Virus record (IMG/VR): IMGVR_UViG_3300045988_148502
Direction: 5' to 3' (one strand)
DNA length: 64,000 nt
Source of the DNA: a virus
Under the pieces are notes generated by a model. It had not been told where the DNA came from, searched no databases, and saw only the letters and a list, made by a program, of their open reading frames with translations. How positions within the stretch are numbered: position 1 is the first letter of the stretch; the number at the start of each line of letters is the position of its first letter. The translations under genes and the position numbers were made by a program. This document shows positions 2,586 through 60,635 of this stretch, piece by piece.

Positions 2586-2615
2586 CTATTTTTTCACTAT
2601 TAAAAATCAAAGTAG

Positions 2616-41201: not shown

Positions 41202-41233
41202 AAAGGGGCATATCTGTGATGATGTGCCCCTTT
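41202..41233. terminator. bidirectional hairpin terminator between the packaging block (+) and the portal gene (-)
   Basis: 9-bp stem AAAGGGGCA (41202-41210) / TGCCCCTTT (41225-41233) with a 14-nt loop, flanked by A- and T-runs. Confidence 0.65.
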
Positions 41234-43275: not shown

Positions 43276-46200
43276 CTATTTACGGGTTTTGTTCATTTCT
43301 TCTATCATTTCCTTTTTGAGTTCGTTCAACTCGGCTTCAATATCCTTGCGTTCCTCGTCACTGATTGCTTCTTTTAATTCATTGTAGAGGTCGTCAATGT
43401 CTTCACGGTAATCCTCGAAGATTTCGTAACGCTCGTATTCGGGTGAATTGTAAAGGAAATCAATCTTTTCCGCATAGTCAAATATGTCGTTGTCGGTATC
43501 TTCTTCATAGTGCTTCAATCGGGATTTCAACCGGTCATGCTCCTCTTTCAATCGGAAATACTCATTGTTCACAGCCCTGTACTCGGTGCGTTCGTCCCCG
43601 GCTTTGACCAGCCTGTTTGCCAACAAGAAGCTGCGAGGGTCGTACTCACGGTTGCCTGTAACGGTTTCTACCATCTTGCTCAACTTGTCGATTGTTCCGA
43701 ACACGCCACCGAAATAACCGTTCAGCATATATTCAATCTTTGCCGGATTAAAGTCAATCGTTCCTTTTGTATATGGGTCTCCACCCGTAGCTTCATTCAT
43801 GGCATTGGCCAATCCGACAATGTATTTATTGGCACTCTTATACGCCTTTGTCCATTCGGGCATATCTTTGTTGTAAGGTGTGTCTTTATAAAGTGGCATA
43901 CCCGTCCAACTCTTTTCTGCAACGTAGGCTTCCCACAAGGGTTTGTAGGCACTCGGTACAAAGGCATTCAATCCTCCGCCGCCCTCCAAGAAATCAATAG
44001 GTAATATCTGTGTAGCCTGTCCTGTTATGGCTTCGGCAATTTCTCCGTCTGTAAGATGTTCCTTTCCGTTAAGGACGGAAATCATCAGTTCGCCCATACC
44101 GTAAACAGCCCTGTATTCTACCGGAAGAGGAATTGATACCCAACTGTTTCCTGCCCTGAAAAGAATATTGCTGCGCCTTACATATTCGGGAAGATTATAG
44201 TATGCGTTCTTGTCATCATCGTCATCATCATCGCCACCCAAGTAGGCAACAATGGCACCAAGAAGGAACATCGCCGCAATACCTGTAAAAGCTTTGGCAG
44301 GATGGCGTTTCATCTGTCGTCCAAAGTTTGCCGTACCTTGAATGGCTGCATTCCAAAACACATAGCCGCTACGACCAAGTCCCGATACCAATGCACTGGC
44401 ATTACCAGCCTTTGTCTGCCCTGTACTGTCATAGAATTTTGCTCCGCTGCCTTTCTTGTTGAAGTTTACGCTTATCTCCTTTGCATCATAGATGGCTCTG
44501 TCAATGCTCCGGCCCATTTCGCGTGATGTCATGAAAGCGGCAAAACGGGCGCAGTTCTCAACGGCTCGGTTGTACTCATCGAAACGTCCGCCCAACAAGT
44601 CCCATGCTTTTTTTACAGGAATCTTGCCGTTTGATTTTTTCAGTTCCCTGCGTATGTCGTTCTTATGTTGTTCAATGTCCCGGATATTGGCATAGCCTGT
44701 TTCTCCTCCGTTCATCATGAACTGATGAAACATCGCTTCCGTCTTGTTACTCATGTCAAGTGTCCCTTTGCGGTGCTTTGCCAAGAGTTGCTTTATCCTT
44801 ACAGGATTGGCATACATATAATTGCGATGAAAACGAAGTGCGTAGTTCGGGCTTTCCCTTATCCAAGTCATGGTGTTGGTGTATAGCATATCTCGCATGA
44901 AGTTCGATACGATGAAGTCCGGGTTGCGTGTGGTATAGAACGCACTCAACTGTCGGTTGATGTTTTCACCGGCACGGAGAATGGCCCCGATTGCCCCCGA
45001 CATATCGTTGTCGGGATTTGTCTGTCCGTTCAATGCTTGTGCCGCACGTGGATTGCCGTTTATGGTAATCACATAGTCCCTGCCGCCACGCTTCACTACA
45101 ATTTGGTGCTGCCTCATATCCCGGCTTTCCACAATACGGTAAGGAATATTCACGGTATCTTTGCCATGCTTGTACCGGTCAGGATATTGCTGTGCCAATG
45201 ACTCCATTTTAGTTTCAAAGTCCAGCATCTTCCGTTCCACCACTTCGGGAGTATCTGTACTGTCTATGTTGTCAGGAAACACTGGCTTCCATTCGTCGGC
45301 CACCGTATCGTATTCTACCCAAATGTCGCTCACACTGACAAGGTCGCTCGGATGGTTGAGGGCGAAATTAAGGAAACGCTGTTTTACCAATTTGTTCCGG
45401 TTGCCCTGCATGATAGCACCTTCTGCCATTGATTGCAGGTTGGCAAACGGGTCATCCGCTTTCGACCTGCGTCCTTCCGCTTTCTTGATAGGAGCATTGA
45501 ATGCACTTTGCTTGTGCGTCAGATATGCGTATGCTTCAGAACTGGTCTTTTCGTCAAAACCACGTAGCGGAATGTAAAAATCATACATATCTGAAATTTT
45601 ATCAAAGGTCGCTTTACTCATCATGCCACATTCGTATGACTTTGAAAGTATTGCTTTGCTCGCGGCATTGACTTTTTTCCAAAGGTCGGTAGTGTCGTGT
45701 GCCTGTTCGTAATCGTTAACCATTATCTGTGCTTCCGTTTCGGCATCAGCAACATTATCCATACCTGTAAGGGCTGTAAGTCCGGCATAGTCGGTTTGGT
45801 CTGCATCGGTTGCTCCGTTATTGATTGCTTCATTACGCATATATGTATTGCGTTCAAGGCCGTGTTTCGCCATCATGTAATCAGTCAATTCCTCACGCTC
45901 TGCCTCAGTCCTGGCAAGTTTGGCAACCTCATCAAGCATGGGCTTGAACAGGGTGTGGGCAAACGCATCGGCTTCGGCTTTGTTCACACTTGACAGACGG
46001 TTTTCTCCCAAGTATGCGTTTTCAAATCCGTCCACATCCTCAATGTTTGTTTCCTTGCCAAGGATTGCAGTCATGGCTTCTTTCAAGCCGAGCATACTGT
46101 CCTGTAATGCTTCCTGTGATTGGAACATACCGCTTTTTACACGCCTTTCATAACGGTCACGAGCCAACTCCCTTTCATGTATTTCCGGGTCACCGGTACG

Positions 46201-49200
46201 GTATAGTGCATCATCACTTTCTGCAACAGTCTGATGATGTGGGTCGGAAACCGCATAATTTCCGACTTTCAGTTCATACTGCTTTGCCACATCAGCGGCT
46301 TCTCCCAATATGTTTCTGTATCTGCCCGGTTCCGCAAGGTTCTCGTAACTGCGCCACAAGATGTAGCGAAGTTCGTTGTCCGATAGAGTAACCCCTCTGA
46401 AATCCTCAAAGCCTATCTTATGAAGCATATTCAAGAAGAAATCCTTTATCTGTTGCCACCAACTTGCGTTGATGTTCTCAAATTCAGTATCTTCTGCAAG
46501 CGAAGCAAGATATTCTTCGGTAGCCTTATGGAAATCCCAACCGTTTTTTGCAGCCATATCTACAATGCGTCTGCGTATGTTCTCATCGGCATTGTTGAAT
46601 ACATTATCAAGGAATGTATCAAAATGTTCTCCGAACAACTGGCGCAAACCATAGTGCGCCACAGCCTCATGCAGCAGTGTCTGTTCAACATCAAACGTAC
46701 TTGTATGGTTGGGAATAACAATGGTTATCTTCCCTGTACTCTTCGAGTAGAAGCCTTTTGCACGCTGCTTCTTTCCATCCAAGACGGAAGCATCAGTAAC
46801 AACCTCCACATTGTCAAGATGCAGTTTCTCTGCAAGGCTTTCCACACGTTCTGCCATTCTTTGGCGTTCACGCCGTGCAAATTCCCTCCGCTGCTTTGCC
46901 GTTCTCCTTGACTGACCGAGCAGCTTTGCCACTGGGTCATTCTCATAACTGACTTCATCATCGTTATATGCACCAATGCCGTTACGTTGGAGAATATCAG
47001 TTGTGTCATCCTTTACTTTTACGCCTAATTTGGCAAGTTCCTTGACAACTTCTATTATGCGCTCCTCGGGAATATCCGCACGCAACTTTCCTCGGTAAGG
47101 GTAGAAGTTTCCACCTGCGGCACGAAGCAAGGTTTTGTTCTCGTAGTAAACCGCACCGTCTTTCTTTGTCTTTGGAACAGTGAGGTAGAACATCTTTGCC
47201 CAACTGTTACCCATAATCTCGACCTTTCCATCGTGGCTTGTTATAGGAGTATAGTCTTTTATCTGTTGTAAACGACTGCTCAATGGAGCACCGCTCGTTT
47301 TCAGCATAGAAGCATTCCATTTGTCGGGCATTAAGATACCATCGTGAACATTACCGTCAATGTCTGTATAACTAATGAGTTGTCCAGGATAGCCTCCGTA
47401 TTCATCTTGTGTATCGGCTATAGCCTGCAAGATATTACCTGTCATAATGAAACCTGTCTTTCGTGTCTCACTTGGTATCTGACTATCCCAATTATCAAGT
47501 GTGGTGGCACGTGCAGCATCCCAATTATCATTGGTTACCTTGTCAATGCTTCGCAACGCATCAATCTGTGAAAGTTTAATTTCAATACGTCTGCGACCGT
47601 CAAGGGTAGCAAATACCGCAAGTGTTGTTGAGGCTGTAATCTTGCTATCCTTTGTTTTGTAGCCACAGAAGATAGCAGAAGTAGCAAAGTCGAAAATCAT
47701 TGACTCAAGGTTATCGGGCACAAGATAAGACTTGCCAACTTCAAACATTCTCAAGCGGCGCATCATCTGGTCGCTGTTCGTGTTGAGTCGCAAGATGTTG
47801 TCCTTATGCTTTGCCTCTACCTTTTCATTGGTCTCTGCGATAAAGTTATCTATGGCAACACGCTTTTCTTCATCGCTGCGTTTCTTCTGACCATTGATTT
47901 TTTCTGTCTGCTTGGCTATGTCGTCAATGGCTTTTGCCTTTGATTTCTCGTAGCGTTCATCTTCTGCAGCAATTCTAACTTCGTCCTCCTTGCGGATAGT
48001 TTCAATAACATTGTCAAGATAGGTATTCGGCTCAACACCCTTGTTTATCTGTTCTATTACCTTGCGTATCTCATCCGCTTTCATCGGCTTTCTCAACACA
48101 TCCATTTCCACCTTTTCAACAAATGAATTGCGAGCAAATGGATTGTTTCCATCAGGGTCTATGCCCTCAGAAGATATGCGTTTCTCGATAGTCGTTGCGC
48201 GGAGTGGCATTACAGTAATCTTTAAGTCGTTACTGCCGGTATCATTGAGATATTTAATCAATTCGTTATAACGCCTTACGACATCATCGTAAAACTCCTC
48301 CTGCTCTTTTGTTGCCAATAGAGCGACATAACCTGTAATCTTGCGTGCATCATCTTCTTGCGGTTTGTAATCTTCAAGTTCGCTTGCCTGCACACGACCA
48401 CCTCCGAGTCCTCCCTTTTTCAAAGGAGTACCCATTTTCTCGTATATATCTACATTATCACGAAGATACTCAACAACAACTTGACTACCATACTTGTTGA
48501 GTAAATCCGGTGCTTCCACATCATTACTTTCACTATCCTGTGAGGTCGTGGTATTAGCGTTCAACGATTTCAGTTTGGTGGAAAGCATCATCAGGAAACG
48601 GTTCTCGGCGGGTACAGGCAAACCGAGGTTGATGTAATAACCTCTATGCACCTGTCCTGTACGGTCTATACGTCCTATCATCTGCATATAGTCGTTAATA
48701 TCGCTCAGCGGCTGTGCTATAATCATAGAACGCTGACGTTGGTCGCTGAATTTCTCTGAAGCGTGCAAACTGATACCTGTTGATGCAGACTTGTTGAGGA
48801 TGAGGACATCAAGAACACCACTGTTGAACTCTCTCTGCATTTTCTTTTTGTCTTTGTCAGTTCTACGCTTGACAACGACACGTCCGTCATCGTTGCGCTC
48901 AACATACATATTACGTCCTGTCAATTCACCTACTTTGTATCCTTTCTTGTTCAGACGCTCGATAATGGCATCAAGTGGACTGATAAAGATATCGCTTGTG
49001 CTTTCACGAATGAAATCCTGCAACTCATAATATGCTTTTTCTCCTGCCGGACCTAATGCCTGTGGAGAATATCGCTCGTGGCGTTCGTTACCGTCCTCAT
49101 CTTTGACGGTGTACTGCATAACGGTGTCAAGTCCTTTCAGTAGGCTTGCACTGAATGTTGGCTCATCAATGATTTCTCCTGCGGCATAGTCCTTAATACT

Positions 49201-52200
49201 GCTCTCCATTGTGCTTTCCAACGCAATAACAGGGTGGCGACCTGCATTGATTTCGCCTTCCACTTCATCTGCAATAGCATTGACTTTGAGGGCAAGCATA
49301 AGCTGCTTGGTGTAGTTGTAGGTCTTGCTTGCAAATGGCACGTTCTCAACGCCCATTTTATCTGTGCCTCGCTTCACACCTGCGCTCTCTGCCATAACAG
49401 CAAGTTCCATATCCAATGCTTCAATCATCGGCTTTACGTAGTCCTCTTGGAATTTGATAATGGCATTGAATGCTGCTATGGTACGGTCGTAATTCTCTCT
49501 TGCACGTCTAACAGTTTCGGGGTCAGTGATTGTTTTCCAATCGGTAACAACATCGCTCATATCTCGCTCTCTGCGTACCATTTGCCCTGCATTAGTCAAT
49601 TCACGACTCATAATCTCTTGCAGAGTTACACCGCCTTTCTCAATGATACTAATCATCTTATCCGGATCAACCTTTGCTTGGCTCATCGCTGTACGAATTG
49701 CATACAAAGGCATTGTGTCGGGACGCTTTGCGAACGTAGCACTTGCAAATGTGGCGGCTTTCGCTCCACGAAGAATACTTTGCAGATAGGCACCTGTATT
49801 GCTCGAACCTGCCGCCGTATGACTTTCATCAAGGAACAGATAGTTATCCTTTGCAATGGCACGTAAGAATGTGGCTTTCGGGGTAGCCTTGCCATTCTTC
49901 ACGTTCTTGCTTTTCTTGGTGCGTGCGCCACTCTTTTTGGCAGCTTCCTCCATTTCTTGCTGACTGACAACATCGCCAGTGTTTACCTGCGAATAGGTGA
50001 GTACAGCGAAGTCATATTCTTCGGGCAATGCTCCCGATGCAAAGACTTTTGCCATTTCTGCGGAAGATAGAGGTTTGTGTACTGTATTACCTTTGCTATC
50101 AACCATAGCACCGTCAGAGTTGAATATAAACGGCACGAGGTCTCCACTTCCAACATCTACCAAGTCTCGGTAAATATCGGAGAACAAGTCTGCTTTCTGT
50201 GTGATGAATACAGGTTTCTCACCTCGTTGCACTGCCCAACGAATAAGTGCTGCCATTTGGCGCCCCTTACCAACACCAGTTTGGTCGCCTATAATAAGGG
50301 CTTGTTCCTGTTTCATCTGATAGATTGCCATAGCGACACTGTCCATCTGCTCGGCGGCAAGTGCTTGATACGTTTCAGCAATGGTATCATATCCGAGTTC
50401 TGTCTTGACAAATTCATCTATGCTGCCGTGCTGTGCTTCAATTTGAGAAAGCACTTTATCCATTGCCTCGACCATAGCTGCGGGGGCAACGCTTTCAAGT
50501 CTGAATGCTGTATTATGAGGACGATAAGGAAGTTTTTCTTCAGTCAAATCTCTTTTCTTGGGTTTTCCTTTTAATCCCAGTCCGATTCGTTGAACGTCCA
50601 CTCCATCCACTGGCTGAGGCTCATTTCCCACAGTTCGTTGTTCAAGTCCTCTTCCGTCAGTTGAAGGCTTTCCAATGGTATCAGTTCCTCTCCCGGTCTC
50701 GCCAACTGTATCATTCTGTCCACGTTTTCCCAATACAGGTCGTTGGCCGCTCTCAGAGTTTCCCTCCAATCCGGTTCTTCCTCTCCGTTCTGTTTGGCTT
50801 CCACTCTCATCATCCGCCTCAGATTGTCTATTATGTCCTGCTCCGTCAGTTTCCCCGGATGCGTTGTCAGCGACAGACAGATGTCGCCCTCCTTGGCTAC
50901 GTAATACTTCTGTTCCATTTGTCTTTTCATTAAAATTCAATACTTCGTTAATAATCTCGTACAGGTCGTCAAAACTTTCAGCCTTGCGGATTGCTTTGTT
51001 CTCCACAGGAGGGTATACGGCAGTCTGCGCCCGTTCCTCATTGGTTCTGCGGCCATCTATCAGTATCATACGAGTGGGGAATGTTGTACCTTGCTTCGCA
51101 TACAGTCCACCGCCCATGTCAATAACGCCTTTCACGTTATAGTGGTCATATAAGTAGGTGAAAAATGGTTTCATGCTCTTTATAGCACCATTGTTCGCAT
51201 ACTCCATATTTCCACCGATGATGATAGCGGCTCTGCCGTCATCTTTCATGCTTGAAAGAGCGTTCAATGTTATTTGCGGGTCAAGTCCCGGTATCTTCTT
51301 TCCATCATACTCAACTGCCTCACGCTTTCCGAATGGGGGATTGGCGATAACAACATCATAACGCACATCGCCATCGAATGGCTCTGTCGCATCCTGCTGT
51401 GTTACTTGTGCAAATCCCTGTTCACGTAGGTTGTCCAGTCGTGTTTTGTCAAGTTCATTTACATGAACCTGTCCGACTGGAATAGTGAAAACTAACATCC
51501 CATTACCCGCAGTTGGTTCTAACACGCTTCCGTCTGCTTTGTCAGCCATTGCAAATCGGCCGGCAATCCAAGCCATAGGAAGAGGCGTGGAGTACTGCTG
51601 CATCTTTATACGGTTGCTGCTTCGTGCCGAAATGGTTGGTTGCATTTCATAAAGTTTGCAGATTAAATCGTATGATTCTCTGCTAGCACTTCCTTTACGT
51701 TCAATAACCTCACGTGCAGCTCTGACCAATCCGTCCTCAACAAGTTCCTGCAACAAAATATCAGTTCTTCCATCATTATCTACCTCCATTCCCAACTCAC
51801 TTGCACGCTTGCGTAGGTCTAAAATGCTTCTGTATGGCTTTGTCCCATTGTCAAGAGCCGCAAGCATATCAGCCTTTACTGTCATTGCAAATTGGCGATG
51901 CAGTTCTGCATCAGCCTTGTCATTTTCAGTAAGTAAATCACCAAATAACCCACCTGTTTGATTCCGTGAATTTACTGCTTTTTTCTCATTCTTCTTACGT
52001 GCAGGGCGACTTTTTTTGATACGTTCCTGTGCAATCTCTGCCTCTTGCTCCACCTCGGTCTCTCTTGTTACGGTTTCGGCGGTAGCAAGCGCATCAATAC
52101 TTTTCTTATCGAAATTCGCCACATCGAATTGTTGTACCTCATCGTATGGAGTCATGTCTGCATCCAGTCCGTTCTCTGCCACCTCCGGCAAATCTCTCGC

Positions 52201-55200
52201 ACCATTGTAAAATGCTTTAAGGTAAGGGCGTATGGCATCGCCCAAGTCTGCAATCATGGCCGTTGCATACTCGGCAAACTTACGTGAACCTTTCTCCAAA
52301 TGGTAAACAGCCATCTCTGTTCCAATGGCAAGAATCTCAGGGTCTATACCTATATTCATTTGACCGAGCAACTTCTTACGCATACGCTCACGAAGTTCTG
52401 CATAACGCTCATCAGTAACAAGACGGTTACCACTCGCTTCAGTCTTTTTCTGCGAATTGTCTTGTTGTTGCTCACTCCGCATATCGTTGATAAGAGTTCG
52501 GACTTCATTAGCAAACTTATCTGCACTATCTTTAGTCAGGAAAATAATATTTCCTTCATGATAAACGTCTCCACCACGCTTCTCTCCTAAATCCATCACA
52601 GCCTGTTTTTCCGCATCAATCATCTTCATCAAAGTACGAACAGAATATCTGTTATCCATTTCCTTGTCAACAACGAAATCTGTCCTTTTGTCACGAATTT
52701 CATCCTTTGCCTTGCGATCAAGTTCTCGGGTCTTAATTTTATTTTCGAGCGAAATGCCAACTGCATCCAAAACTTCTTGCATACCGTTCTGAGGATTGCG
52801 AAGAATGTCTAACATTTCCTCTGGACTGTTGGTTGTCTGACGAAAACGTGCATCACCAATAGGTATGGAACCGCTCACATCATCACGACTTAATGTAGTT
52901 TCCCCTGTTTCTTTATCAACAAAAACAGAGTATTGCCATATAGGAGTATATTCCTGCCTTTCCTCCTGCTTCGTGGCTTTCTGTTGTTGAGGTTCTGAAA
53001 ACTGCACATTGCCGTCATTTACTTCTGACAAATCAGACAAAGACAAAGGTGGTTGTGATTGTGCATCGGTTGCATATTCTGCCAAGCGTTCAGCATCTTC
53101 CTTGCTCCGCATCATGAAGCCTTGCTTTTCCTTGTCCCACCAGCCTTTCAGTTGTTTGGCAAACATTGTGGTGTGCTTCCGAACAGTATCTCTTAATTCA
53201 TTATTGAACTCCACAAGGTGCATATCCAACACCTTACCTCTTTTGGTGGTGTACTGTGCCGGAGTAATGGTGTATGCAGCATCAGTCGGTGTTGTCGTTT
53301 CTTCATTGGAATTGCTTTGTTCTAACTTCCGCTGTTCAGCAAAGAGGTCGTTTATTTCGGAAATAATGCGGGCTTCCTCAAATATATCACTCTGAACATG
53401 TGCGGCTTCTTGTTCCTTGTGCAGTTCTTCAATGCGTGACTTGATTTCAGAAAGTCTGTCGACTTGTGTACCTGAACTCTGTTCTTCAACACTTTTGACT
53501 GACTTGTATTCTGCAAACGCTTTTGTCTTCCGGTGGCTACTATCTATCCATTTCTCGAAATCCTCCAAGTTTACGGCAGTTACCACTGTCTTGTGATTAT
53601 TTGCCCAGTCGCTGTCATAATTCGCGAAGTAAGCTGCCTCGGCATCGTCAGTCTCATTGAAACCAAGCATTACCTTATGCTCATCAAAGCTGCCGTCCTC
53701 ATTATACTGGTCCACCACGAACACCCTGCGTCCGTTCCACCCGTCAATATCATCAGAGAGGAACACGTCTATGTGGTCTCCATCCACGCCCTCCGTGCCA
53801 CGAATGTAGCCGTAGGTGTTCTGCATGATCGTTTCCCACTTGTTGCCCTCTGTGTCTATTCCACTACGAACGGATCCTTTCGGGTTCTCAATGGTGATAT
53901 TGAATGTACCAACCTGCACATGACCTTTCTTATAATTGCCAGCTTCTTTCTGTTTCTCCGTAGGAGTAGTATCGGTTTCTTTCTCTGCCACTGCAACAGC
54001 ATTGGCTAAAGACAAAGATGCATCAATATAATTAAGAACATCCAATAAGTCTCCGAATGTTTGACCGTCATACTCATAAGCGCTACCTATATAATTACCT
54101 TTCGTATCAGGTGCATCAACTTTTATAACTTTATGAGTACCATCAACAATAATTGTCTGTTTATAAGTATCGCCATACTTTCCGCTTTCAATCCAATCAT
54201 CTTCTTGAACTTCAATACGTCTTGCTATTTTTGCACTAAGTTGATTGTCAGTATCATCAGAAGACAGCATTTCTTCTTGTGATAAAGAAGATTCTATTTC
54301 GCTTTGTCCACCAATGCTTTCAGTTCTTCCTGTATCATCAGTTGTCCCATTTCCGTTCTCAACTCGTTCTCTTGGCGCAAGAGTTCCATTGCTTCCTTGC
54401 TGCCCTCGTTGGCTTGTTGCAGTATCGCCAACCAATACATTGCTTCGTTGTTGTCCATTGTAATCTAAATTTAATGCTTCTTTAATAGCCTGTACGAGCG
54501 TCCGAGGGGTATTGTCCGGTTGTTCGAACAGAGTTTCTTCCTGTGTGCCTTGTATAAGGTCATAAATCTTGCCGAATGTATTTTGAATGAAGCTTTGGCT
54601 TTCACCTTTATACATTGCGGCCAAATGCAGGACAAAGTTACTGAAATTATCAGCAGGGAGATAACTTTCCCCAGTGACATCATCCATTTGATACTGGCGT
54701 TTCCAACTTTCTACGGCAGTACGTGCTTCCTTGAAGTTCTTTGCCTCTACAAACATTTTATCTTGGGACAAAGCATAGTAAGCACGAACGGAATTCTGTA
54801 TCTCATCTACCATTCGTTCACTGTTCGGACTATCATAATCACGAAAAGCAGTGGCAAGAATAGCCTTTTGTGCTTTTACCGGCAATACGTTGAACATTTC
54901 CTCCAACCGTGTACTACCGTCCTTGAAAATGCTTTGATACATGATACCACGCAAATCATTCTTGGATTCGGGAGTCAAGTTACCCTTGCTATCAAACGCA
55001 CTCTTGTATTGTGTGGGACTGATGAAACCTCTTTGGCTCATCCATTTTAGGACACTTGCACCGTTGGCATCCACAAGCCCGGCAAACGACACTTCATCGT
55101 CCGAGGCTCTGAGTAACAGGTTGGCAAACGAACGTACTTCGATTCCCATACGCTGTAAGGCATTTTTCGGTTTGATTCGTTCCACACCTCCGCTTTCGGT

Positions 55201-58200
55201 GTCCTGTGCTACGTATTGTCCCAGAGGAATAGCCGTAGCATCGTCCACATGAAGCATATTTACCAGCACCGGACTTTGTAGGGCAGCAATATCTTCAGCA
55301 CGCAAACCAAACTCTTCCGCATGGTCTTTCAGGTATTGCCTATATGCTTCGGCCTGTTCCGGATGGCTTTCCCACATCAGACGCAAGGCATCACTGCGGT
55401 TGTTTCCCTGTATAACTTCACCACGTTCGTTTACGGTCGGCGCACCGGTGTAAGCGGTAATACTCGATGTGATTTCTTCCGGACGAATGTTCCCGGCGAT
55501 TTTCCGTGCAGACAATACGCTCGCTTCGTCATTTCGTTCCTTGGGTTGCGCTTCATCAATAAAATGCAGAGGATTACGCACACCTTGGATATGGCTCGGT
55601 TGCAACAACGATGCGTCAATCACGGCCACATGACCGGGAGCCAGCACATCATTGCTGAACTTCACGTTCACCTCTTTACCTTGTACGGTCTGCAATGGTT
55701 CTTGCCTGTCAATCTTATGGCCGTTCACACGTCTGTACCCCCTTGCGCGGGCATCCTGCGGTGTATCATCCACCATGTCGGGAACTCCGTTAAGGGCTTC
55801 ACGCTCGACGCGTTCGGCTTCCTCACGCTCTGCACGCAGCTTTTCTTCTTCCGCTTTGCGTAGGGCGGCAGCTTCATCAGCCATTCGTTTGCGTTCCGCA
55901 TCCGCTGCCATTCTTCTACGGTTGGCAGTACCGGCTATCTTCTGCCAAGCGAGCAAATCCTGTTTGGCTGCATCAATCGCCGCTTTGCGTTCTTTCTCGG
56001 AAGCAATCTTTTCGGCAATGGAGTTGCCACCTTTCGATTTGGCTTTCTCCAACTTCTTCAAGGCTTCTTCCTTGTCGGCAACCATTCCATCGGCTACGGT
56101 CTGTGCCATATCCTCATCACCCTCAGTCTGCTCCACAATGGCATCCCAAGCTGTGTCGCTGTCGGCCTGCTCATATAGTGGATTTCCCTGCTCATCCTTT
56201 GGTATTCTCTGCATGGCAGGAATATTTTGAGGGGCATTGTTATCATTTTCGGGAATATTTTCCGCACCATTGTTGCTCTCATTTTCGGCAGGATGTTCAA
56301 ATGCCACTCCGTTATGCTCCAACAGCATATTGTCAAGTTCATCACGAGTGAACAGGTTCACACGTTTTCCGTTGATAGGAGCTTCGGTAAATACCTCATA
56401 CTTGCCGTCCGCATCGGCATCTGCTGTGATATTGCCACGGACGGTAACGCCGTTCTCATCGGTAAGCGAAACAATGTCATTGAGGGCGTATTGTGGTCTT
56501 TCAGCCTCTTGCATTTCCTGTTTCCGTTCGGCATTCTCAATGGTTCTCTGCTGCTCGAACTGCGCCACACGTGCCAAGTTTGCCGCATCAGCCTGTTGCT
56601 GTATGGTTTCTTTTGCCAACGGGAAGATATTCACGCCGTCCGATACGTTAACTGTGCCGTCCCCATTATCCACAATACCGTCTTCGTTGGCTACAATCTG
56701 AACCTGTATCTGTGCGTCATCTCCTGTAATGGTGTATGTATCGCCGGGGTTGAATGTAACCACACCGTCAATCTTGTCGGATGCTTCCTGTGCGAACTGT
56801 TGAATGATAGCCTCCTCCGCTGTCATTTTCTCATCGGACGGGTTCAACGGCTCATCAATGTTCAATACGGCATCGGGCGACACCTGTTCAAGTGCGCCTG
56901 TTTCCGCATCACGCACAATGATACTGCCGTCCGAAGCCCGGTTGTCAATGCCGCTGCCGTCTGCATACTGCACAAGGTTTCCACCCACCACATACACACG
57001 GCGGTCGTCCTGCTTCATCGTAGCCCCCTGTATCATGCCGGAGGTGCGGTTGGTGCGTGCGTCAACCATTGCGTTGCTTTGCTCCACACGTGCGTCTATA
57101 TCATCACGCACACGCTGAATCATGCCGTCATATACCTGTTTGGCATTGAGGTAGTCAATAACCGTTTCCAACTCGCTTTCTCCCCAAAGGCCATTGTTCC
57201 GCATTTCCTCCAATGCATTCATAGGATGTATATCCAAAAAGCCAAGCGTGTTTTCATCCACTATGGCAGAAACCCTCTGCCGCTGGTAGTCACGCATATT
57301 CTTGGCATCGGTCATTTCCTGTGGGTCTGCGAGGTTGTAACCGTCAATGTAGCTTTCATTCATTGACTGCACATCCTCGTCCTGTTCGCCGCCCCGCTTC
57401 TGTGCGAGAGTACCGAGGTTAAAGCCCCTCATCATCAACGAACGCTCCATATAGGTAAGTATTGCGGCTCTCTCATCGTCCGAGAAATCCTTGTCGTTCA
57501 CGATACCCTCTGCCACACTTCCAATGTCATCGTTGGTCGTAAGGTCTATTGTCGCCCTTAACGGCTCCCATATTTCTTTGCCAAGCAATTCTGTTGCACG
57601 GGCATCTGCCTTGTTTACTCCGTGCTTCATTGAAGCATACTGTACTCCCGACAAAGTAGCCTTACCTGCACCCATCAATCCCATAGAAAGAGCCATGCCG
57701 CCCCAAATGTCGCCATGGAATTGTCCTGTCGCAAGCAAATTGGTACGTGTGCCGTCCGGGTTCTGCTGATAAGCATCGTCGAGATTGAGCATGGTGCGCC
57801 ACAATTGCCCATAGTATTCTTCCGTTACCTCTCCGAAATAGTCGCTCACACCCATTTTGTTGAATAACTGATGTGTCTGTCCCATGATACCGTCCAACGC
57901 ACCTGCATCAGTCTTTGAAAGTACTGCACCGATACGCTTTGCACCCACCACATTGGCGAGTTTGCTCATATTTCCAAGAGTAACTACAGGGTCAAGGTGC
58001 GAACCGAACATTTCCGAATAGTTTTCAACGATGGCATTGGCTTCTCCTTGCCAAATGGCATTTCCCCAAGTCTTGTCGTTGGAAAAATCATAGTTTCCGT
58101 TCTCATCGACAACCACATCACCGAGTTTCCTGTCAATGATGTCGGCCGTGGTTTTCCCAGCCTGTACAGTGTTGGTCATCAGCGGAGCACGGAGAAGCAG

Positions 58201-59451
58201 GTCATCAGCGGTTGTTCCGAGAGCCTTGATAGTCCAGTTGGTGGCATACTGCCCCAAGCCTTTCACGCCGTTGTCCTTCACGTATGTCTTGAAGCCCTGT
58301 TTGGCCATTTGCTCTACCGTTTCTTTGCCAACCACCTTTGTGGCGGCTTTCGTTCCGGCTTTGGAAAGAACATTGATACCTTTGAATCCACCGCCTGTAA
58401 TGCCAAAGTCAAGCATGAATGCAGGCATGTGGCCGGTCATCATACCGGCTCTGTTCCAAAAGCCGGCGTTCCCGCCATACATCTGCTCCGCCTGTCCTTT
58501 GTTGTAGAGTGCGCCCATCATTTCATTGTAGGCTTCACGTTCTCCCTCTGTGGCATTCTCACCTTTCAGGTCATCGGCGTTCATCATGGTCAATGCGTCA
58601 CGCATATCGCTCATGCCGAAATCCCAAGTGCGGAAATCTCCTGCCACACGACCGAAACCACGCCAAAAGCCAACATCGATGCCTTGCTCACGGTCTTTCT
58701 GCTCTTCAAGGTCTTTGATAAGTTCCTCCGTTTGACGAATGGCGACATCCAAGGTACTGTTTTCCTTGTCGCTCATCTGACGAGGAACATAGGTATCTGC
58801 TGCAAGTAAGAATCCAAGAGGAGCTGTATTCTTTTTTGTATCTTCTTCCCATTGCTCATGCACTCTCTTGGCACTTGCCTCTCTTTTCTCTTGCAGCTCT
58901 GCAAGTTTCAGCATTGCACGGCGCAACTGTCCGTTTACAGACATATCAGCCGCCTGTCGGTATCTGAAACTCTCCATGTCGGCAAGTCCCTTGCTGGTGT
59001 ATCGGTTGCCGAGAGGGGTAATGTAGGTTTTCTCCAGTTTTCCGCTCTCCGGGTTGAACTGCATTTTCCCCTCTGCGGTCTGTCCGCCGCCCAACGGTGC
59101 GTTTTCGTGATACTCACGCATGGTTTCCATACGCTCGTTGAAGCCGTCTATCATTTGCTCCGTGCGGCGTTTCATCTGTCCTATATTTGCACTGAAGCGT
59201 ATTTTATCCTGTTCCGTCAACGGCATTTCTTCTGCTGAAGGAGTTACAGGAGTTTCAGGTGTAGAGTCCAGGGCAGATTGTTCGGGCTGTTGTTGCTCCG
59301 ACATGAAAGTCCTGTAGTCTGCCGACTTTACACGATATTTCTTCCCCTCACGCTCCATGATTGTAGAAGCATCGGGAAAGTCTTTCATAAAACTGTCAAT
59401 GTGTTCATCACGCACATTGTATTTCTTTCCGTTGTATTCAAATATTGGCAT
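43276..59451 (-). CDS. giant polyvalent protein (5391 aa): ParB-like, pyrophosphatase-like, N6-adenine methyltransferase, SF2 helicase and HExxH metallopeptidase-like modules plus a C-terminal membrane/poly-Asp region
   Basis: Uninterrupted 16,176-nt ORF. Methyltransferase motifs QQYSTP (51583-51600), VLEPTAGNGM (about 51497-51526) and NPPF (51331-51342). Helicase motifs GDQTGVGKGRQ (about 50255-50300), LFLDESH (about 49806-49840) and QMIGRIDRTGQ (about 48661-48690). HEAVAH at 46654-46671. ParB-like IDASLLQPS...VIQGNNRSDAL at about 55380-55640. Confidence 0.9.
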   Translation of the reverse strand: MPIFEYNGKKYNVRDEHIDSFMKDFPDASTIMEREGKKYRVKSADYRTFMSEQQQPEQSALDSTPETPVTPSAEEMPLTEQDKIRFSANIGQMKRRTEQMIDGFNERMETMREYHENAPLGGGQTAEGKMQFNPESGKLEKTYITPLGNRYTSKGLADMESFRYRQAADMSVNGQLRRAMLKLAELQEKREASAKRVHEQWEEDTKKNTAPLGFLLAADTYVPRQMSDKENSTLDVAIRQTEELIKDLEEQKDREQGIDVGFWRGFGRVAGDFRTWDFGMSDMRDALTMMNADDLKGENATEGEREAYNEMMGALYNKGQAEQMYGGNAGFWNRAGMMTGHMPAFMLDFGITGGGFKGINVLSKAGTKAATKVVGKETVEQMAKQGFKTYVKDNGVKGLGQYATNWTIKALGTTADDLLLRAPLMTNTVQAGKTTADIIDRKLGDVVVDENGNYDFSNDKTWGNAIWQGEANAIVENYSEMFGSHLDPVVTLGNMSKLANVVGAKRIGAVLSKTDAGALDGIMGQTHQLFNKMGVSDYFGEVTEEYYGQLWRTMLNLDDAYQQNPDGTRTNLLATGQFHGDIWGGMALSMGLMGAGKATLSGVQYASMKHGVNKADARATELLGKEIWEPLRATIDLTTNDDIGSVAEGIVNDKDFSDDERAAILTYMERSLMMRGFNLGTLAQKRGGEQDEDVQSMNESYIDGYNLADPQEMTDAKNMRDYQRQRVSAIVDENTLGFLDIHPMNALEEMRNNGLWGESELETVIDYLNAKQVYDGMIQRVRDDIDARVEQSNAMVDARTNRTSGMIQGATMKQDDRRVYVVGGNLVQYADGSGIDNRASDGSIIVRDAETGALEQVSPDAVLNIDEPLNPSDEKMTAEEAIIQQFAQEASDKIDGVVTFNPGDTYTITGDDAQIQVQIVANEDGIVDNGDGTVNVSDGVNIFPLAKETIQQQADAANLARVAQFEQQRTIENAERKQEMQEAERPQYALNDIVSLTDENGVTVRGNITADADADGKYEVFTEAPINGKRVNLFTRDELDNMLLEHNGVAFEHPAENESNNGAENIPENDNNAPQNIPAMQRIPKDEQGNPLYEQADSDTAWDAIVEQTEGDEDMAQTVADGMVADKEEALKKLEKAKSKGGNSIAEKIASEKERKAAIDAAKQDLLAWQKIAGTANRRRMAADAERKRMADEAAALRKAEEEKLRAEREEAERVEREALNGVPDMVDDTPQDARARGYRRVNGHKIDRQEPLQTVQGKEVNVKFSNDVLAPGHVAVIDASLLQPSHIQGVRNPLHFIDEAQPKERNDEASVLSARKIAGNIRPEEITSSITAYTGAPTVNERGEVIQGNNRSDALRLMWESHPEQAEAYRQYLKDHAEEFGLRAEDIAALQSPVLVNMLHVDDATAIPLGQYVAQDTESGGVERIKPKNALQRMGIEVRSFANLLLRASDDEVSFAGLVDANGASVLKWMSQRGFISPTQYKSAFDSKGNLTPESKNDLRGIMYQSIFKDGSTRLEEMFNVLPVKAQKAILATAFRDYDSPNSERMVDEIQNSVRAYYALSQDKMFVEAKNFKEARTAVESWKRQYQMDDVTGESYLPADNFSNFVLHLAAMYKGESQSFIQNTFGKIYDLIQGTQEETLFEQPDNTPRTLVQAIKEALNLDYNGQQRSNVLVGDTATSQRGQQGSNGTLAPRERVENGNGTTDDTGRTESIGGQSEIESSLSQEEMLSSDDTDNQLSAKIARRIEVQEDDWIESGKYGDTYKQTIIVDGTHKVIKVDAPDTKGNYIGSAYEYDGQTFGDLLDVLNYIDASLSLANAVAVAEKETDTTPTEKQKEAGNYKKGHVQVGTFNITIENPKGSVRSGIDTEGNKWETIMQNTYGYIRGTEGVDGDHIDVFLSDDIDGWNGRRVFVVDQYNEDGSFDEHKVMLGFNETDDAEAAYFANYDSDWANNHKTVVTAVNLEDFEKWIDSSHRKTKAFAEYKSVKSVEEQSSGTQVDRLSEIKSRIEELHKEQEAAHVQSDIFEEARIISEINDLFAEQRKLEQSNSNEETTTPTDAAYTITPAQYTTKRGKVLDMHLVEFNNELRDTVRKHTTMFAKQLKGWWDKEKQGFMMRSKEDAERLAEYATDAQSQPPLSLSDLSEVNDGNVQFSEPQQQKATKQEERQEYTPIWQYSVFVDKETGETTLSRDDVSGSIPIGDARFRQTTNSPEEMLDILRNPQNGMQEVLDAVGISLENKIKTRELDRKAKDEIRDKRTDFVVDKEMDNRYSVRTLMKMIDAEKQAVMDLGEKRGGDVYHEGNIIFLTKDSADKFANEVRTLINDMRSEQQQDNSQKKTEASGNRLVTDERYAELRERMRKKLLGQMNIGIDPEILAIGTEMAVYHLEKGSRKFAEYATAMIADLGDAIRPYLKAFYNGARDLPEVAENGLDADMTPYDEVQQFDVANFDKKSIDALATAETVTRETEVEQEAEIAQERIKKSRPARKKNEKKAVNSRNQTGGLFGDLLTENDKADAELHRQFAMTVKADMLAALDNGTKPYRSILDLRKRASELGMEVDNDGRTDILLQELVEDGLVRAAREVIERKGSASRESYDLICKLYEMQPTISARSSNRIKMQQYSTPLPMAWIAGRFAMADKADGSVLEPTAGNGMLVFTIPVGQVHVNELDKTRLDNLREQGFAQVTQQDATEPFDGDVRYDVVIANPPFGKREAVEYDGKKIPGLDPQITLNALSSMKDDGRAAIIIGGNMEYANNGAIKSMKPFFTYLYDHYNVKGVIDMGGGLYAKQGTTFPTRMILIDGRRTNEERAQTAVYPPVENKAIRKAESFDDLYEIINEVLNFNEKTNGTEVLRSQGGRHLSVADNASGETDGAGHNRQSEADDESGSQTERRGRTGLEGNSESGQRPVLGKRGQNDTVGETGRGTDTIGKPSTDGRGLEQRTVGNEPQPVDGVDVQRIGLGLKGKPKKRDLTEEKLPYRPHNTAFRLESVAPAAMVEAMDKVLSQIEAQHGSIDEFVKTELGYDTIAETYQALAAEQMDSVAMAIYQMKQEQALIIGDQTGVGKGRQMAALIRWAVQRGEKPVFITQKADLFSDIYRDLVDVGSGDLVPFIFNSDGAMVDSKGNTVHKPLSSAEMAKVFASGALPEEYDFAVLTYSQVNTGDVVSQQEMEEAAKKSGARTKKSKNVKNGKATPKATFLRAIAKDNYLFLDESHTAAGSSNTGAYLQSILRGAKAATFASATFAKRPDTMPLYAIRTAMSQAKVDPDKMISIIEKGGVTLQEIMSRELTNAGQMVRRERDMSDVVTDWKTITDPETVRRARENYDRTIAAFNAIIKFQEDYVKPMIEALDMELAVMAESAGVKRGTDKMGVENVPFASKTYNYTKQLMLALKVNAIADEVEGEINAGRHPVIALESTMESSIKDYAAGEIIDEPTFSASLLKGLDTVMQYTVKDEDGNERHERYSPQALGPAGEKAYYELQDFIRESTSDIFISPLDAIIERLNKKGYKVGELTGRNMYVERNDDGRVVVKRRTDKDKKKMQREFNSGVLDVLILNKSASTGISLHASEKFSDQRQRSMIIAQPLSDINDYMQMIGRIDRTGQVHRGYYINLGLPVPAENRFLMMLSTKLKSLNANTTTSQDSESNDVEAPDLLNKYGSQVVVEYLRDNVDIYEKMGTPLKKGGLGGGRVQASELEDYKPQEDDARKITGYVALLATKEQEEFYDDVVRRYNELIKYLNDTGSNDLKITVMPLRATTIEKRISSEGIDPDGNNPFARNSFVEKVEMDVLRKPMKADEIRKVIEQINKGVEPNTYLDNVIETIRKEDEVRIAAEDERYEKSKAKAIDDIAKQTEKINGQKKRSDEEKRVAIDNFIAETNEKVEAKHKDNILRLNTNSDQMMRRLRMFEVGKSYLVPDNLESMIFDFATSAIFCGYKTKDSKITASTTLAVFATLDGRRRIEIKLSQIDALRSIDKVTNDNWDAARATTLDNWDSQIPSETRKTGFIMTGNILQAIADTQDEYGGYPGQLISYTDIDGNVHDGILMPDKWNASMLKTSGAPLSSRLQQIKDYTPITSHDGKVEIMGNSWAKMFYLTVPKTKKDGAVYYENKTLLRAAGGNFYPYRGKLRADIPEERIIEVVKELAKLGVKVKDDTTDILQRNGIGAYNDDEVSYENDPVAKLLGQSRRTAKQRREFARRERQRMAERVESLAEKLHLDNVEVVTDASVLDGKKQRAKGFYSKSTGKITIVIPNHTSTFDVEQTLLHEAVAHYGLRQLFGEHFDTFLDNVFNNADENIRRRIVDMAAKNGWDFHKATEEYLASLAEDTEFENINASWWQQIKDFFLNMLHKIGFEDFRGVTLSDNELRYILWRSYENLAEPGRYRNILGEAADVAKQYELKVGNYAVSDPHHQTVAESDDALYRTGDPEIHERELARDRYERRVKSGMFQSQEALQDSMLGLKEAMTAILGKETNIEDVDGFENAYLGENRLSSVNKAEADAFAHTLFKPMLDEVAKLARTEAEREELTDYMMAKHGLERNTYMRNEAINNGATDADQTDYAGLTALTGMDNVADAETEAQIMVNDYEQAHDTTDLWKKVNAASKAILSKSYECGMMSKATFDKISDMYDFYIPLRGFDEKTSSEAYAYLTHKQSAFNAPIKKAEGRRSKADDPFANLQSMAEGAIMQGNRNKLVKQRFLNFALNHPSDLVSVSDIWVEYDTVADEWKPVFPDNIDSTDTPEVVERKMLDFETKMESLAQQYPDRYKHGKDTVNIPYRIVESRDMRQHQIVVKRGGRDYVITINGNPRAAQALNGQTNPDNDMSGAIGAILRAGENINRQLSAFYTTRNPDFIVSNFMRDMLYTNTMTWIRESPNYALRFHRNYMYANPVRIKQLLAKHRKGTLDMSNKTEAMFHQFMMNGGETGYANIRDIEQHKNDIRRELKKSNGKIPVKKAWDLLGGRFDEYNRAVENCARFAAFMTSREMGRSIDRAIYDAKEISVNFNKKGSGAKFYDSTGQTKAGNASALVSGLGRSGYVFWNAAIQGTANFGRQMKRHPAKAFTGIAAMFLLGAIVAYLGGDDDDDDDKNAYYNLPEYVRRSNILFRAGNSWVSIPLPVEYRAVYGMGELMISVLNGKEHLTDGEIAEAITGQATQILPIDFLEGGGGLNAFVPSAYKPLWEAYVAEKSWTGMPLYKDTPYNKDMPEWTKAYKSANKYIVGLANAMNEATGGDPYTKGTIDFNPAKIEYMLNGYFGGVFGTIDKLSKMVETVTGNREYDPRSFLLANRLVKAGDERTEYRAVNNEYFRLKEEHDRLKSRLKHYEEDTDNDIFDYAEKIDFLYNSPEYERYEIFEDYREDIDDLYNELKEAISDEERKDIEAELNELKKEMIEEMNKTRK

Positions 59452-59453
59452 AG

Positions 59454-60635
59454 TTATTTGTTTTTACCGGGTGTATAATCAATCACATCATCATCGCCGC
59501 CACCGGGAACATAGTCCACGACCTCATCATTCAGTTCCGAGGTCATGGTGGCAGGGTCAAGTTTGGAGAGGGAAAGCATGATTGCAGAGGCTTTAGGCGA
59601 TTTGTGCCAATTCTGTTTTACATAGTCCTCTTTCTTCTGTGGTGTATCAAGTTTCTTCATTTGACGGTCAAAAGCCCTTTTCTCTTTCTCATCCTGTGGA
59701 GAGAGGTCGGCAAGCATAGCATCATACACCTGCTGCATCGAACCTTTCCAAACATTCTCGTAAATGGCTACTTGGTTTCCGCCGCCGTCAGAAAAACCGA
59801 GCTGCTTGCCACGTACACCACGTGCGGCTGTCGCTCTCGCTTTATCACGCTCTACAGCCACATTGTCATTATGTCTCTTTACTTGGAAATTGTAGGAACG
59901 GTCTGCCTGACGTTTGTTTTCATCATAGTTTGCTTGCCAACGCCTATCAGCTTCTTTGTCCCGACCTTTCTTGTATTCCTGTTCCGCATCATATCGGTCA
60001 TCTGTAATCTTCTCTCGCTCGTTGCGATGTTGAATGCCCTCATTGTATCTGTCATCATTCTTTTTGTCAAGACCAAGCTGCCTTTGCCACTTACGTTCAC
60101 GGTCATCCCTTTCTTCATCAGCGATTCTTGCCCTCATCAGCCCCTCATAATATTCTTTCTCCTTGCCTTCACGTTCTTTCATCAGCTTGTCATATCTCAC
60201 TTTGGTACGTTCTGACATGGTATTCTTACCGGTATACATATTTGGAGCGTACTGCGTGGTGAAGAACAAGTTAGAGAGTGCCGATATACCATCACCAATG
60301 GCTGCGAATATCTGTTCACGTTTCTGCTTCTTCTTTTCTTTAGCAAGTTCCTCGTCCGTTGGCGGTTTATAGGGATTGAGTTTTTTGTACAATTCAGCGT
60401 ATGAGAGACTGCCACCGTTCACATCGGCTTGTTTGGCCGGAGGTGCAGCGACCGTTTCAGATTGGGAGCCGGTAACGGCAGGAGCCGCAGCTGCTTGTTG
60501 TTCCGTCCATTTCTGTGTACCCTTTACCGGGGATGATACGGAAGGAGCGTCTTGCTGCTGTTCGTGCCATTCCTTAGAGCCTTTGAGCGGAGGCGTACCA
60601 CCTCCGTTTCCTAAAATATCATCCATTGTTGCCAT
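59454..60635 (-). CDS. low-complexity charged protein (393 aa), possible virion/ejection protein
   Basis: ORF track. K/E/R/D/Q-rich. Stop lies 2 nt before the giant gene start. Confidence 0.55.
   Translation of the reverse strand: MATMDDILGNGGGTPPLKGSKEWHEQQQDAPSVSSPVKGTQKWTEQQAAAAPAVTGSQSETVAAPPAKQADVNGGSLSYAELYKKLNPYKPPTDEELAKEKKKQKREQIFAAIGDGISALSNLFFTTQYAPNMYTGKNTMSERTKVRYDKLMKEREGKEKEYYEGLMRARIADEERDDRERKWQRQLGLDKKNDDRYNEGIQHRNEREKITDDRYDAEQEYKKGRDKEADRRWQANYDENKRQADRSYNFQVKRHNDNVAVERDKARATAARGVRGKQLGFSDGGGNQVAIYENVWKGSMQQVYDAMLADLSPQDEKEKRAFDRQMKKLDTPQKKEDYVKQNWHKSPKASAIMLSLSKLDPATMTSELNDEVVDYVPGGGDDDVIDYTPGKNK

Follow-up and report, generated by a model that had tools for sequence, protein, structure and literature searches.

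Sequence anatomy of a giant polyvalent protein of Bacteroides phage BS-TP4: conserved terminal modules flanking an exchangeable cargo

Gene gp3 of Bacteroides phage BS-TP4 encodes a giant protein of 5391 amino acids (aa), which sequence comparisons resolve into conserved N-terminal and C-terminal modules flanking an exchangeable cargo of about 2700 aa; this anatomy is our main new result. The gene lies at 43276-59451 on the minus strand of the window, by which we mean the whole 64,000-nucleotide stretch of viral DNA analysed (IMG/VR record IMGVR_UViG_3300045988_148502), starts with ATG and specifies a polypeptide of 604.9 kDa with a pI of 5.0. The explanation that best covers all the observations, and which we consider likely, is that of a protein made late in infection, packed in the capsid and ejected, in which a chassis carries a cargo. 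BS-TP4 was found in 31.3% of 930 Chinese gut viromes and ranks among the most prevalent phages surveyed (PMC12694917). A quarter of the genome of a highly prevalent and cultivable phage, deposited in PQ571277.1 as encoding a 'hypothetical protein', thus gains a domain-by-domain reading, and gp3 is tied to proteins already found in the virions of Burkholderia and Shiga toxin (Stx) phages.

Four segments can be delimited in gp3, all given here and below with their minus-strand positions in the window. The N module (aa 1-1421, 55189-59451), a conserved part of the chassis, has its core at aa ~220-720 and is followed by cargo block A (aa 1422-2591, 51679-55188) and by cargo cassette B (aa 2592-4137, 47041-51678), which holds a methyltransferase, a linker, a Strawberry-notch helicase and a post-helicase region. 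The C module (aa 4138-5391, 43279-47040), the other conserved part of the chassis, stands at the very C-terminal end of thousands of polyvalent proteins. These limits are drawn by relatives that differ in their middle part. P0041, a complete 2669-aa protein of a Phocaeicola vulgatus prophage, consists of the equivalent of gp3 aa 49-1421 (84%; P0041 aa 64-1436) fused straight to that of aa 4138-5391 (97%), block A and cassette B both being absent. The 5553-aa gp55 of phage BKO1-TP3 is collinear with gp3 over aa 64-2591 (78% identity), block A included, and again over aa 4152-5386 (62% identity), whereas the middle ~1560 aa of the two proteins show no detectable similarity, the slot in gp55 being occupied by a classical SNF2-type helicase cassette. 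Other relatives carry between the same ends MuF_C, the nucleases PBECR1/2/5, RadC, LPD3/13/14, Kinase-PolyVal or a helicase-then-methyltransferase unit. Moreover, in the 460 homologs collected, the ends of similarity cluster at domain borders, at gp3 aa ~1825, ~2000, ~2825, ~2975, ~4150 and ~4400.

The two ends of the chassis have very different ranges. All 74 detectable relatives of the N module are Bacteroidales-like, while the C module matches 7237 clusters at E<=1e-3 and 2170 at E<=1e-30. The C-module core (aa 4446-5260, 43672-46116) is common to Bcep22 gp75, 933W p72 and proteins of Ralstonia and Vibrio podophages, and was retrieved by tblastn in 338 phage records of Stx, Vibrio, Ralstonia and Burkholderia phages, whose genomes measure ~57-88 kb, most being near 60 kb among the matches listed. 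No Pfam domain was found in gp3 aa 1-1270; the first 52 residues (59296-59451) form two tandem strand-strand-helix repeats (GKKYxV...), modelled by AlphaFold2 (AF2) with a predicted local distance difference test (pLDDT) score of 77-88. From the N module to the C module, the GC contents of the four segments are 50.4, 43.4, 45.3 and 46.2%. The N module stands out at 50.4% GC, with 52.9% at third codon positions (GC3); the whole window has 43.4% and the remaining modules 43-46%, a difference which suggests a separate evolutionary history or codon regime for this part of the gene.

The middle of the protein may have behaved as a plug-in slot, refilled over evolution through in-frame recombination at domain borders. 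Such a slot would explain both the presence of Strawberry-notch-type and SNF2-type cassettes at one position in sister phages and the existence of a cargo-free prophage relative. A stronger proposition, which we put forward tentatively and with the balance slightly against it, is that the N and C modules suffice by themselves as a delivery chassis in podophages of gut Bacteroidales, so that any insert kept in frame would be packed into the head and injected. If this is true, the host defences met by each phage could be read off its cargo set, and the chassis would be a natural platform for protein delivery into Bacteroides. Taken together, gp3, the 2669-aa P0041 with its N and C modules and the cassette-swapped gp55 form a natural experiment that separates a constant delivery part from an exchangeable cargo, and which makes the idea of a packaged anti-defence effector directly testable in cultivable Bacteroides phages.

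Is an open reading frame (ORF) of this length a single real gene? Its translation contains one stop only, the terminal one, and the window holds no N; the original prediction of one uninterrupted ORF taking about 25% of the phage agrees with the single 5391-aa frame at 43276-59451 and with the 16,176 of 64,274 bp (25.2%) that it occupies in the BS-TP4 genome. With the base composition of gp3, the chance of 5391 stop-free codons is ~1e-140, and the remaining five frames contain 83-442 stops over the same interval. A chimeric assembly, or several genuine genes joined into one, would be compatible with the many database copies that end at contig ends, and with one metagenomic relative that fills the slot with two ORFs of 2312 and 2759 aa overlapping by 8 nt (L005:1070-16280; the polyvalent protein may be naturally split here, or a frameshift may have occurred). 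However, the window is 100% identical to the genome of the cultured isolate (PQ571277.1, 64,274 bp, host B. salyersiae BG8), an independent isolate, BKO1-TP3, has the 5553-aa counterpart, and more than 100 C-module carriers of 4000-6900 aa exist among the representatives listed. Above all, independent fragments from other assemblies, with at least 98.5% identity, bridge each module junction (aa 1421, 2591, 4138 and 4400), and for this reason we treat the artefact as excluded, its residual probability being negligible. Self-BLAST revealed no internal duplication within gp3.

The size of the protein, described as unusual in the original prediction, is not so in its own lineage. Among the 147 C-module carriers listed as representatives, the median length is 4806 aa and the longest protein has 6927 aa; 102 of them reach at least 4000 aa and 66 at least 5000 aa. 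Bcep22 gp75 has 4602 aa, and the 4515-aa JC1 gp69 takes up 22.1% of the JC1 genome (PMC9144972). Giant size being the rule and not the exception in this family, an argument from rarity fails.

The domains recognised in gp3, scored against Pfam gathering cut-offs, place it almost certainly among the phage-type polyvalent proteins, as had been proposed. Three of them are diagnostic domains with cut-offs of 27-28 bits: a ddrB-like ParB domain, a predicted nuclease/NTPase (aa 1275-1399, 55255-55629; PF18763, 5.9e-24, 85 bits), an inorganic pyrophosphatase of the polyvalent type, InPase (aa 1832-1969, 53545-53958; PF18823, 1.2e-52, 178 bits), and LPD38 (aa 5082-5264, 43660-44208; PF18857, 2.7e-38, 132 bits). 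Iyer et al. (2017) found LPD38, InPase and DdrB-ParB confined to phage-type polyvalent proteins and to phage late-gene contexts (PMC5512222). An unnamed domain (aa 2277-2442, 52126-52623) is 37.5% identical to a part of Bcep22 gp75 (BLASTP, E 2e-19) which also sits upstream of the methyltransferase of that protein. A Kyte-Doolittle scan yields a sole transmembrane-like segment (aa 5051-5073, 44233-44301), followed by a poly-Asp run, and two linkers poor in hydrophobic residues lie at aa ~1665-1741 and ~2850-2957. In PHROGs, phrog_14770 spans most of gp3, and phrog_10089, 'DarB-like antirestriction', matches parts of it; the NCBIfam scan gave nothing useful.

The InPase of gp3 is homologous (E 1.4e-25) to the C-terminal part of the portal protein gp19 of Pseudomonas phage Pa193 (PDB 9b41 chain L, residues 637-760). 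This part lies past the portal barrel and has no cryo-EM density, and the Pa193 cryo-EM paper makes no mention of a pyrophosphatase domain.

Cassette B contains a gamma-class N6-adenine DNA methyltransferase (aa ~2600-2850, 50902-51654), with the motifs QQYSTP (aa 2618), EPTAGNG (2645) and NPPF (2704), and a Strawberry-notch-type (Sbno) SWI2/SNF2 ATPase (aa 3028-3745, 48217-50370), with GDQTGVGKGRQ (3055), DESH (3208) and QMIGRIDRTGQ (3590). The six motifs had all been quoted, in this order, in the original prediction, and both enzyme assignments drawn from them are borne out by profiles. The helicase exceeds the Pfam cut-offs, with AAA_34 (best stretch aa 3028-3103, 1.3e-16, 60.8 bits against 27) and Helicase_C_4 (aa 3492-3745, 2.9e-25, 90 bits against 30.5). 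As a single sequence, the methyltransferase stays under every Pfam gathering threshold, N6_Mtase, MTS, Eco57I and UPF0020 falling on the shared motifs with E values of 1e-3 to 8e-3, and it was therefore examined by means of a family profile, built from 22 relatives (28-83% identity). Against 177,635 PDB sequences this profile retrieved only S-adenosylmethionine (SAM)-dependent methyltransferases, among them PH1948 (1wy7, 8e-5) and EcoR124 HsdM, a type I M subunit (0.003); a phmmer search of the same sequences with the 1390-aa core gave no match, and the methyltransferase segment alone reached only E 0.04. The alignment of the 22 relatives shows almost no variation in the TP motif, motif I and NPPF of the methyltransferase, and none or almost none in helicase motifs I, II and VI. 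Since the catalytic motifs are conserved in this way, both enzymes are probably active.

The methyltransferase-Sbno unit also leads an independent life. Matches to it occur in 664 plasmid records, of which 253 are conjugative, with 28-36% identity over most of the unit and the annotation 'strawberry notch', and many 'strawberry notch family' proteins of 1300-2100 aa in a wider protein collection span the cassette from end to end. Judged by these alignments, plasmids commonly carry the unit as a separate gene. Sequenced phages rarely have it (3 of 50,697 records).

How far does this cassette resemble DarB of phage P1, to which it had been likened? The pairing of a methyltransferase with a helicase holds, as does the EcoKI/TaqI-like gamma-class signature of the methyltransferase (N-terminal TP motif and NPP(Y/F)), and P1 DarB is indeed the archetype of the LPD36-methylase-SWI2/SNF2 dyad (PMC5512222), but the helicase family does not: DarB combines N6_Mtase with SNF2-rel_dom and Helicase_C, that is, a classical SNF2 helicase, whereas the gp3 enzyme is made of AAA_34 and Helicase_C_4. 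In BLASTP the sole alignment pairs gp3 aa 2617-2711 with DarB aa 88-187 (30% identity, E 1.5e-5), leaving the helicase and everything outside these ~100 aa of the methyltransferase without alignment; by contrast, Bcep22 gp75 matches DarB in three segments with E values of 1e-16 to 1e-20. A tblastn search of the 50,697 phage records with the 1390-aa core recovered BS-TP4 itself and one Acinetobacter phage, and not P1. The LPD36 model does not match gp3 in Pfam at E<=1; the consensus of the 22 relatives has a conserved helical stretch ahead of the TP motif. By its sequence, then, gp3 has the design of DarB and is outside the DarB family.

That gp3 is nonetheless a DarB ortholog, of the same family and mechanism and likewise dependent on DarA and Hdf for its incorporation into the head, seems to us very improbable. 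The order of the two enzymes, the weak methyltransferase alignment, the fact that darB too adjoins the P1 portal gene, and the label 'DarB-like antirestriction' borne by the BKO1-TP3 sister gene and by PHROG 10089 all speak for it, but it is contradicted for the helicase, and no DarA, Hdf or DdrA domains were seen in the gp3 neighbours scanned. In the databases, BKO1-TP3 gp55 (L002:9392-26053) is named 'DarB-like antirestriction' and gp3 'hypothetical protein' even though the two have ~3800 aligned residues in common; the label of gp55 tracks its SNF2-type cassette and not the common chassis. 'DarB-like' labels thus conceal at least two unrelated helicase families.

By analogy with its homologs, gp3 is very probably carried in the virion and ejected, and the virion location proposed in the original prediction appears to be right. 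The C-module core aligns by BLASTP with Bcep22 gp75 (1e-37) and 933W p72 (3e-40), and proteins of this kind have been found in particles. JC1 gp69 was identified in CsCl-purified virions by 51 unique peptides, together with the two proteins encoded just upstream (PMC9144972), and the Bcep22 homolog is virion-associated by mass spectrometry according to Gill et al., as cited in the same paper. The phi24B protein gp47 (LPD5, LPD1, MuF_C, LPD38) is abundant in virions and absent from the cryo-EM map, and its authors propose for it a role as ejection conduit (bioRxiv 10.64898/2026.04.10.717836). Furthermore, an InPase homologous to that of gp3 is fused at the capsid-interior end of the Pa193 portal.

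Orphan methyltransferases that act before packaging are known from many phages, and gp3 could in principle be a late cytoplasmic enzyme that is never packaged, methylating progeny genomes or remodelling DNA for the terminase, its place in the head operon reflecting timing only. The methyltransferase-Sbno unit of the 664 plasmids is a stand-alone cytoplasmic gene, which leaves room for such an enzyme. We nevertheless consider it improbable: three homologous LPD38 proteins (of JC1, phi24B and, as far as the citation of Gill et al. goes, Bcep22) occur in virions by mass spectrometry, the restriction of LPD38, InPase and DdrB-ParB to phage late-gene contexts (PMC5512222) points away from it, and a cytoplasmic methyltransferase would have no need of 2700 aa of conserved N and C modules.

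We can now propose how a packaged and ejected gp3 would work. The protein would be made late in infection from a transcription unit common to two small proteins and the portal, and most likely a few copies would be enclosed in the capsid and expelled with the DNA into the Bacteroides cell. The N module, ending in the DdrB-type ParB domain, and the C module, with its HExxxH domain, long helical region, single hydrophobic segment and LPD38, may serve encapsidation, exit or envelope crossing. The cargo would be made of effectors active in the first minutes of infection: the InPase, the unnamed domains and the methyltransferase-helicase cassette. The ParB-like domain and the InPase would have nucleic acids or nucleotides as their targets; the methyltransferase-Sbno unit might track along the entering phage DNA, methylating it, or stripping or blocking host enzymes, before restriction can cut. 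The cassette would then do the job of P1 DarB by means of another helicase family; for its action against restriction in particular, we see the chances as even.

A related possibility is that gp3 is chiefly a structural ejection protein forming a trans-envelope channel, like T7 gp14/15/16 or P22 gp7/20/16, in which the enzymes are dispensable passengers. Several traits would fit such a channel: a small-medium-large triad of proteins is encoded next to the head genes in T7 (196/747/1318 aa), in JC1 (196/510/4515 aa) and in 933W, the 159-aa protein encoded upstream of gp3 has a weak T7_gp14 match, Bcep22 gp75 begins with a lytic transglycosylase (SLT) domain like T7 gp16, the hydrophobic segment of gp3 lies just ahead of LPD38, and the phi24B authors have proposed a conduit for gp47. 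In addition, P0041 retains the N and C modules and no methyltransferase or helicase, so that any essential role must be one which the chassis can fill by itself. However, gp3 resembles neither T7 gp15/gp16 nor any ejection protein of solved structure, in sequence or in fold, and its methyltransferase and helicase have kept every catalytic motif intact, a conservation that speaks for selection on the cargo. A conduit with dispensable enzymes is unlikely in our view, somewhat less so than a purely cytoplasmic enzyme; it overlaps the chassis-with-cargo explanation and does not exclude it.

Several observations weigh against a packaged and ejected chassis. The paper describing BS-TP4 reports nothing on gp3 (PMC12694917). 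The AF2 models are mediocre, with a mean pLDDT of 66 for the N module and 59.6 for the C module, and the most conserved stretches are those of lowest confidence: pLDDT is below 50 in the most conserved stretch of the N module (aa ~340-600), and only the first ~150 residues of the C-module model are confident. Foldseek searches with both models gave no PDB match at E<=1e-3, ejection proteins included, profile searches of the N and C modules against PDB sequences gave nothing, and hhalign comparisons of the N module with T7 gp16 and of the C module with T7 gp15/gp16 returned probabilities of 0.1-0.2%. No SLT domain was found in gp3 by Pfam, unlike in Bcep22 gp75. The 159-aa and 393-aa proteins encoded upstream have no sequence similarity to their positional counterparts in Bcep22 and 933W, position alone being common (as also in JC1). 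The sub-threshold score of the methyltransferase as a single sequence belongs to the same side of the balance. Finally, proteolytic processing of gp3 is a conjecture, because the protein has neither a canonical HExxH motif nor similarity to the DdrB peptidase.

The searches also disposed of some candidate folds. Tudor/SH3-like barrels headed the Foldseek matches of the N module, but with E values of 7e-3 or more they were taken as noise. A relationship between the N module and the N-terminal regions of 933W p72 and Bcep22 gp75 was rejected (hhalign probability <1%), and inspection by eye of its conserved core found no motif order fitting an SLT signature. The C-module model has 62 structural matches among the viral proteins of BFVD, all of them polyvalent proteins of the LPD38 type. 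In the poorly modelled aa ~340-600 (57652-58437), Gly/Met hydrophobic stretches such as GDIWGGMALSMGLMGAGK have pLDDT values of 25-45; to judge from the models, this region could depend on an oligomer or a membrane in order to fold.

The HEAVAH motif of the C module (HExxxH; aa 4261-4266, 46654-46671) lies within an alpha/beta domain at aa ~4192-4345. H70, E71 and H75 are invariant in the C-module alignment and have a pLDDT of ~80, and the local model, of strand-strand-strand-helix layout, found no match in the PDB with Foldseek. From the motif, the domain is possibly a metal-dependent hydrolase. A zincin metallopeptidase (MPTase) was considered and not retained: the motif is HExxxH and not HExxH, no zincin MPTase was matched in gp3 by Pfam at E<=1, and the region is unlike the peptidase part of P1 DdrB (hhalign probability 0.2%).

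The surroundings of the gene are those of a head-gene operon. Downstream of gp3, after 65 nt, comes a P22-like portal gene (41237-43210, minus strand; Pfam 6.7e-39, PHROG portal 8e-109), the last of the transcription unit. Upstream, after a gap of 2 nt, lies the gene of a 393-aa protein rich in K, D, E and R (59454-60635, minus strand), without family match, and 11 nt further that of a 159-aa Ala/Gly-rich protein with a glycine-zipper-like N-terminus (60647-61126, minus strand). A 13-bp GC-rich hairpin (41202-41233), between the portal gene and the convergent gene at 40647-41000, is the likely end of the unit; a strong terminator follows the integrase gene on the other side, and no convincing minus-strand terminator was found between 61126 and the portal. 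Given the gaps of 11 and 2 nt, the flanking terminator and hairpin, and the lack of an internal terminator, it is reasonable to place gp3, the two small upstream genes and the portal in one operon, as had been suggested. The order integrase, gp14-like 159-aa protein, ~360-393-aa protein, giant protein and portal, then terminase, scaffold-like protein and SU10-type capsid, is kept in relatives.

The further claim that the neighbours of gp3 are ejection-like goes beyond what was found. It comes down to one match of the 159-aa protein to Pfam T7_gp14 that falls under the cut-off (E 1.7e-5, 25.3 bits against 27), the L004 relative being equally weak, and the direct comparison with T7 gp14 gives E 0.13 (BLASTP). 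No match was found for the 393-aa protein, whose place in the gene order is that of the virion proteins JC1 gp68, Bcep22 gp74 and 933W p71.

Some observations concern the rest of the phage and its records. The gene at 38526-40622 (plus strand), deposited as 'tail spike protein', matches PHROG families of the terminase large subunit (8.7e-11 and 5.2e-10), and a structure note for it in PQ571277.1 reads 'Terminase'; it is probably the large terminase. Its start is overlapped by a rhomboid-domain ORF (38018-38536) that is conserved in relatives. A second giant gene, BS-TP4 gp14 (26064-34001, minus strand; 2645 aa, phrog_14959), has no functional annotation, and was identified as the target of a diversity-generating retroelement (PMC12694917). 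The window is a rotated and reverse-complemented copy of PQ571277.1 minus ~274 bp. That record is linearised inside the 159-aa gp14-like ORF (window 60647-61126, minus strand, against record positions 76-315), and its 240-nt 'gp1' is for this reason a truncated form of the gene. According to PMC12694917, a BS-TP4 homolog is absent from bacterial chromosomes at NCBI; in the NCBI assembly of a Bacteroides ovatus isolate, a 62,546-bp contig (P0020) contains a fragment 99.9% identical to gp3 aa 3127-5391, and the phage may be present there as a separate contig of near-genome length.

In comparison with known systems, gp3 belongs to a class that is already described; it is a well-dissected further example and not a new kind of system. 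Like other phage-type polyvalent proteins, it assembles many unrelated enzymatic domains in one giant polypeptide, it has LPD38, InPase and DdrB-ParB together with a methylase-SWI2/SNF2 dyad whose methyltransferase bears the TP...NPPF motifs, and it is encoded in a late-gene, portal-terminase context. It differs from them in lacking a recognisable zincin MPTase, the hub domain of the class, in place of which it has only the HExxxH motif, in its ~1270-aa N-terminal region without described domain, and in the Strawberry-notch subtype of its helicase, an ATPase type of which 'a few instances' were noted in polyvalent proteins (PMC5512222).

The T7 proteins gp14/gp15/gp16 resemble the gp3 locus in their small-medium-large triad within the structural region, in the weak gp14-family match and in a presumed release before the DNA, but gp3 has no sequence, profile or fold similarity to gp15/gp16 and no transglycosylase domain. 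The 2806-2811-aa proteins 933W p72 and phi24B gp47, from temperate podoviruses of ~60 kb, have the C-module core and, just upstream of their genes, those of a small Gly-rich and a ~420-aa protein; unlike gp3, they have no methyltransferase, helicase, ParB or InPase, and their N-terminal part is unrelated (hhalign 0.2%). The Lessievirus proteins Bcep22 gp75 and JC1 gp69 (4515-4602 aa), named 'DarB-like antirestriction protein', share with gp3 the C-terminal core of ~800 aa with LPD38, the unnamed domain (E 2e-19), a share of 22-25% in a genome of ~60 kb, and two smaller genes ahead, whose products are virion proteins in JC1. Bcep22 gp75 differs in its SLT transglycosylase at the N-terminus, in a methyltransferase and SNF2 pair that is truly DarB-like, and in LPD3; gp3 has instead another N module, ddrB-ParB, InPase and a cassette of the Sbno type. 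The Bcep22 gene stands at the end of the morphogenesis module and that of gp3 beside the portal.

The cassette itself is closest to the stand-alone proteins of plasmids and integrative elements, which align with aa ~2592-3790 from end to end at 28-45% identity and keep the catalytic motifs, with the difference that a separate gene of 1300-2100 aa is in gp3 embedded in frame within a chassis of virion type. P1 is a myovirus, and its DarB (2255 aa), which shields entering DNA in cis from type I restriction, requires for packaging DarA, Hdf, DdrA and Ulx, none of which was seen around gp3. DarB and gp3 have in common a methyltransferase followed by an SF2 helicase and a gene beside that of the portal, and the ParB domain of P1 DdrB (aa 34-164) is homologous to that of gp3 (33% identity, E 8e-17, BLASTP). 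With this DdrB-type domain added to its DarB-like design, gp3 unites in one polypeptide features that P1 spreads over two Dar proteins.

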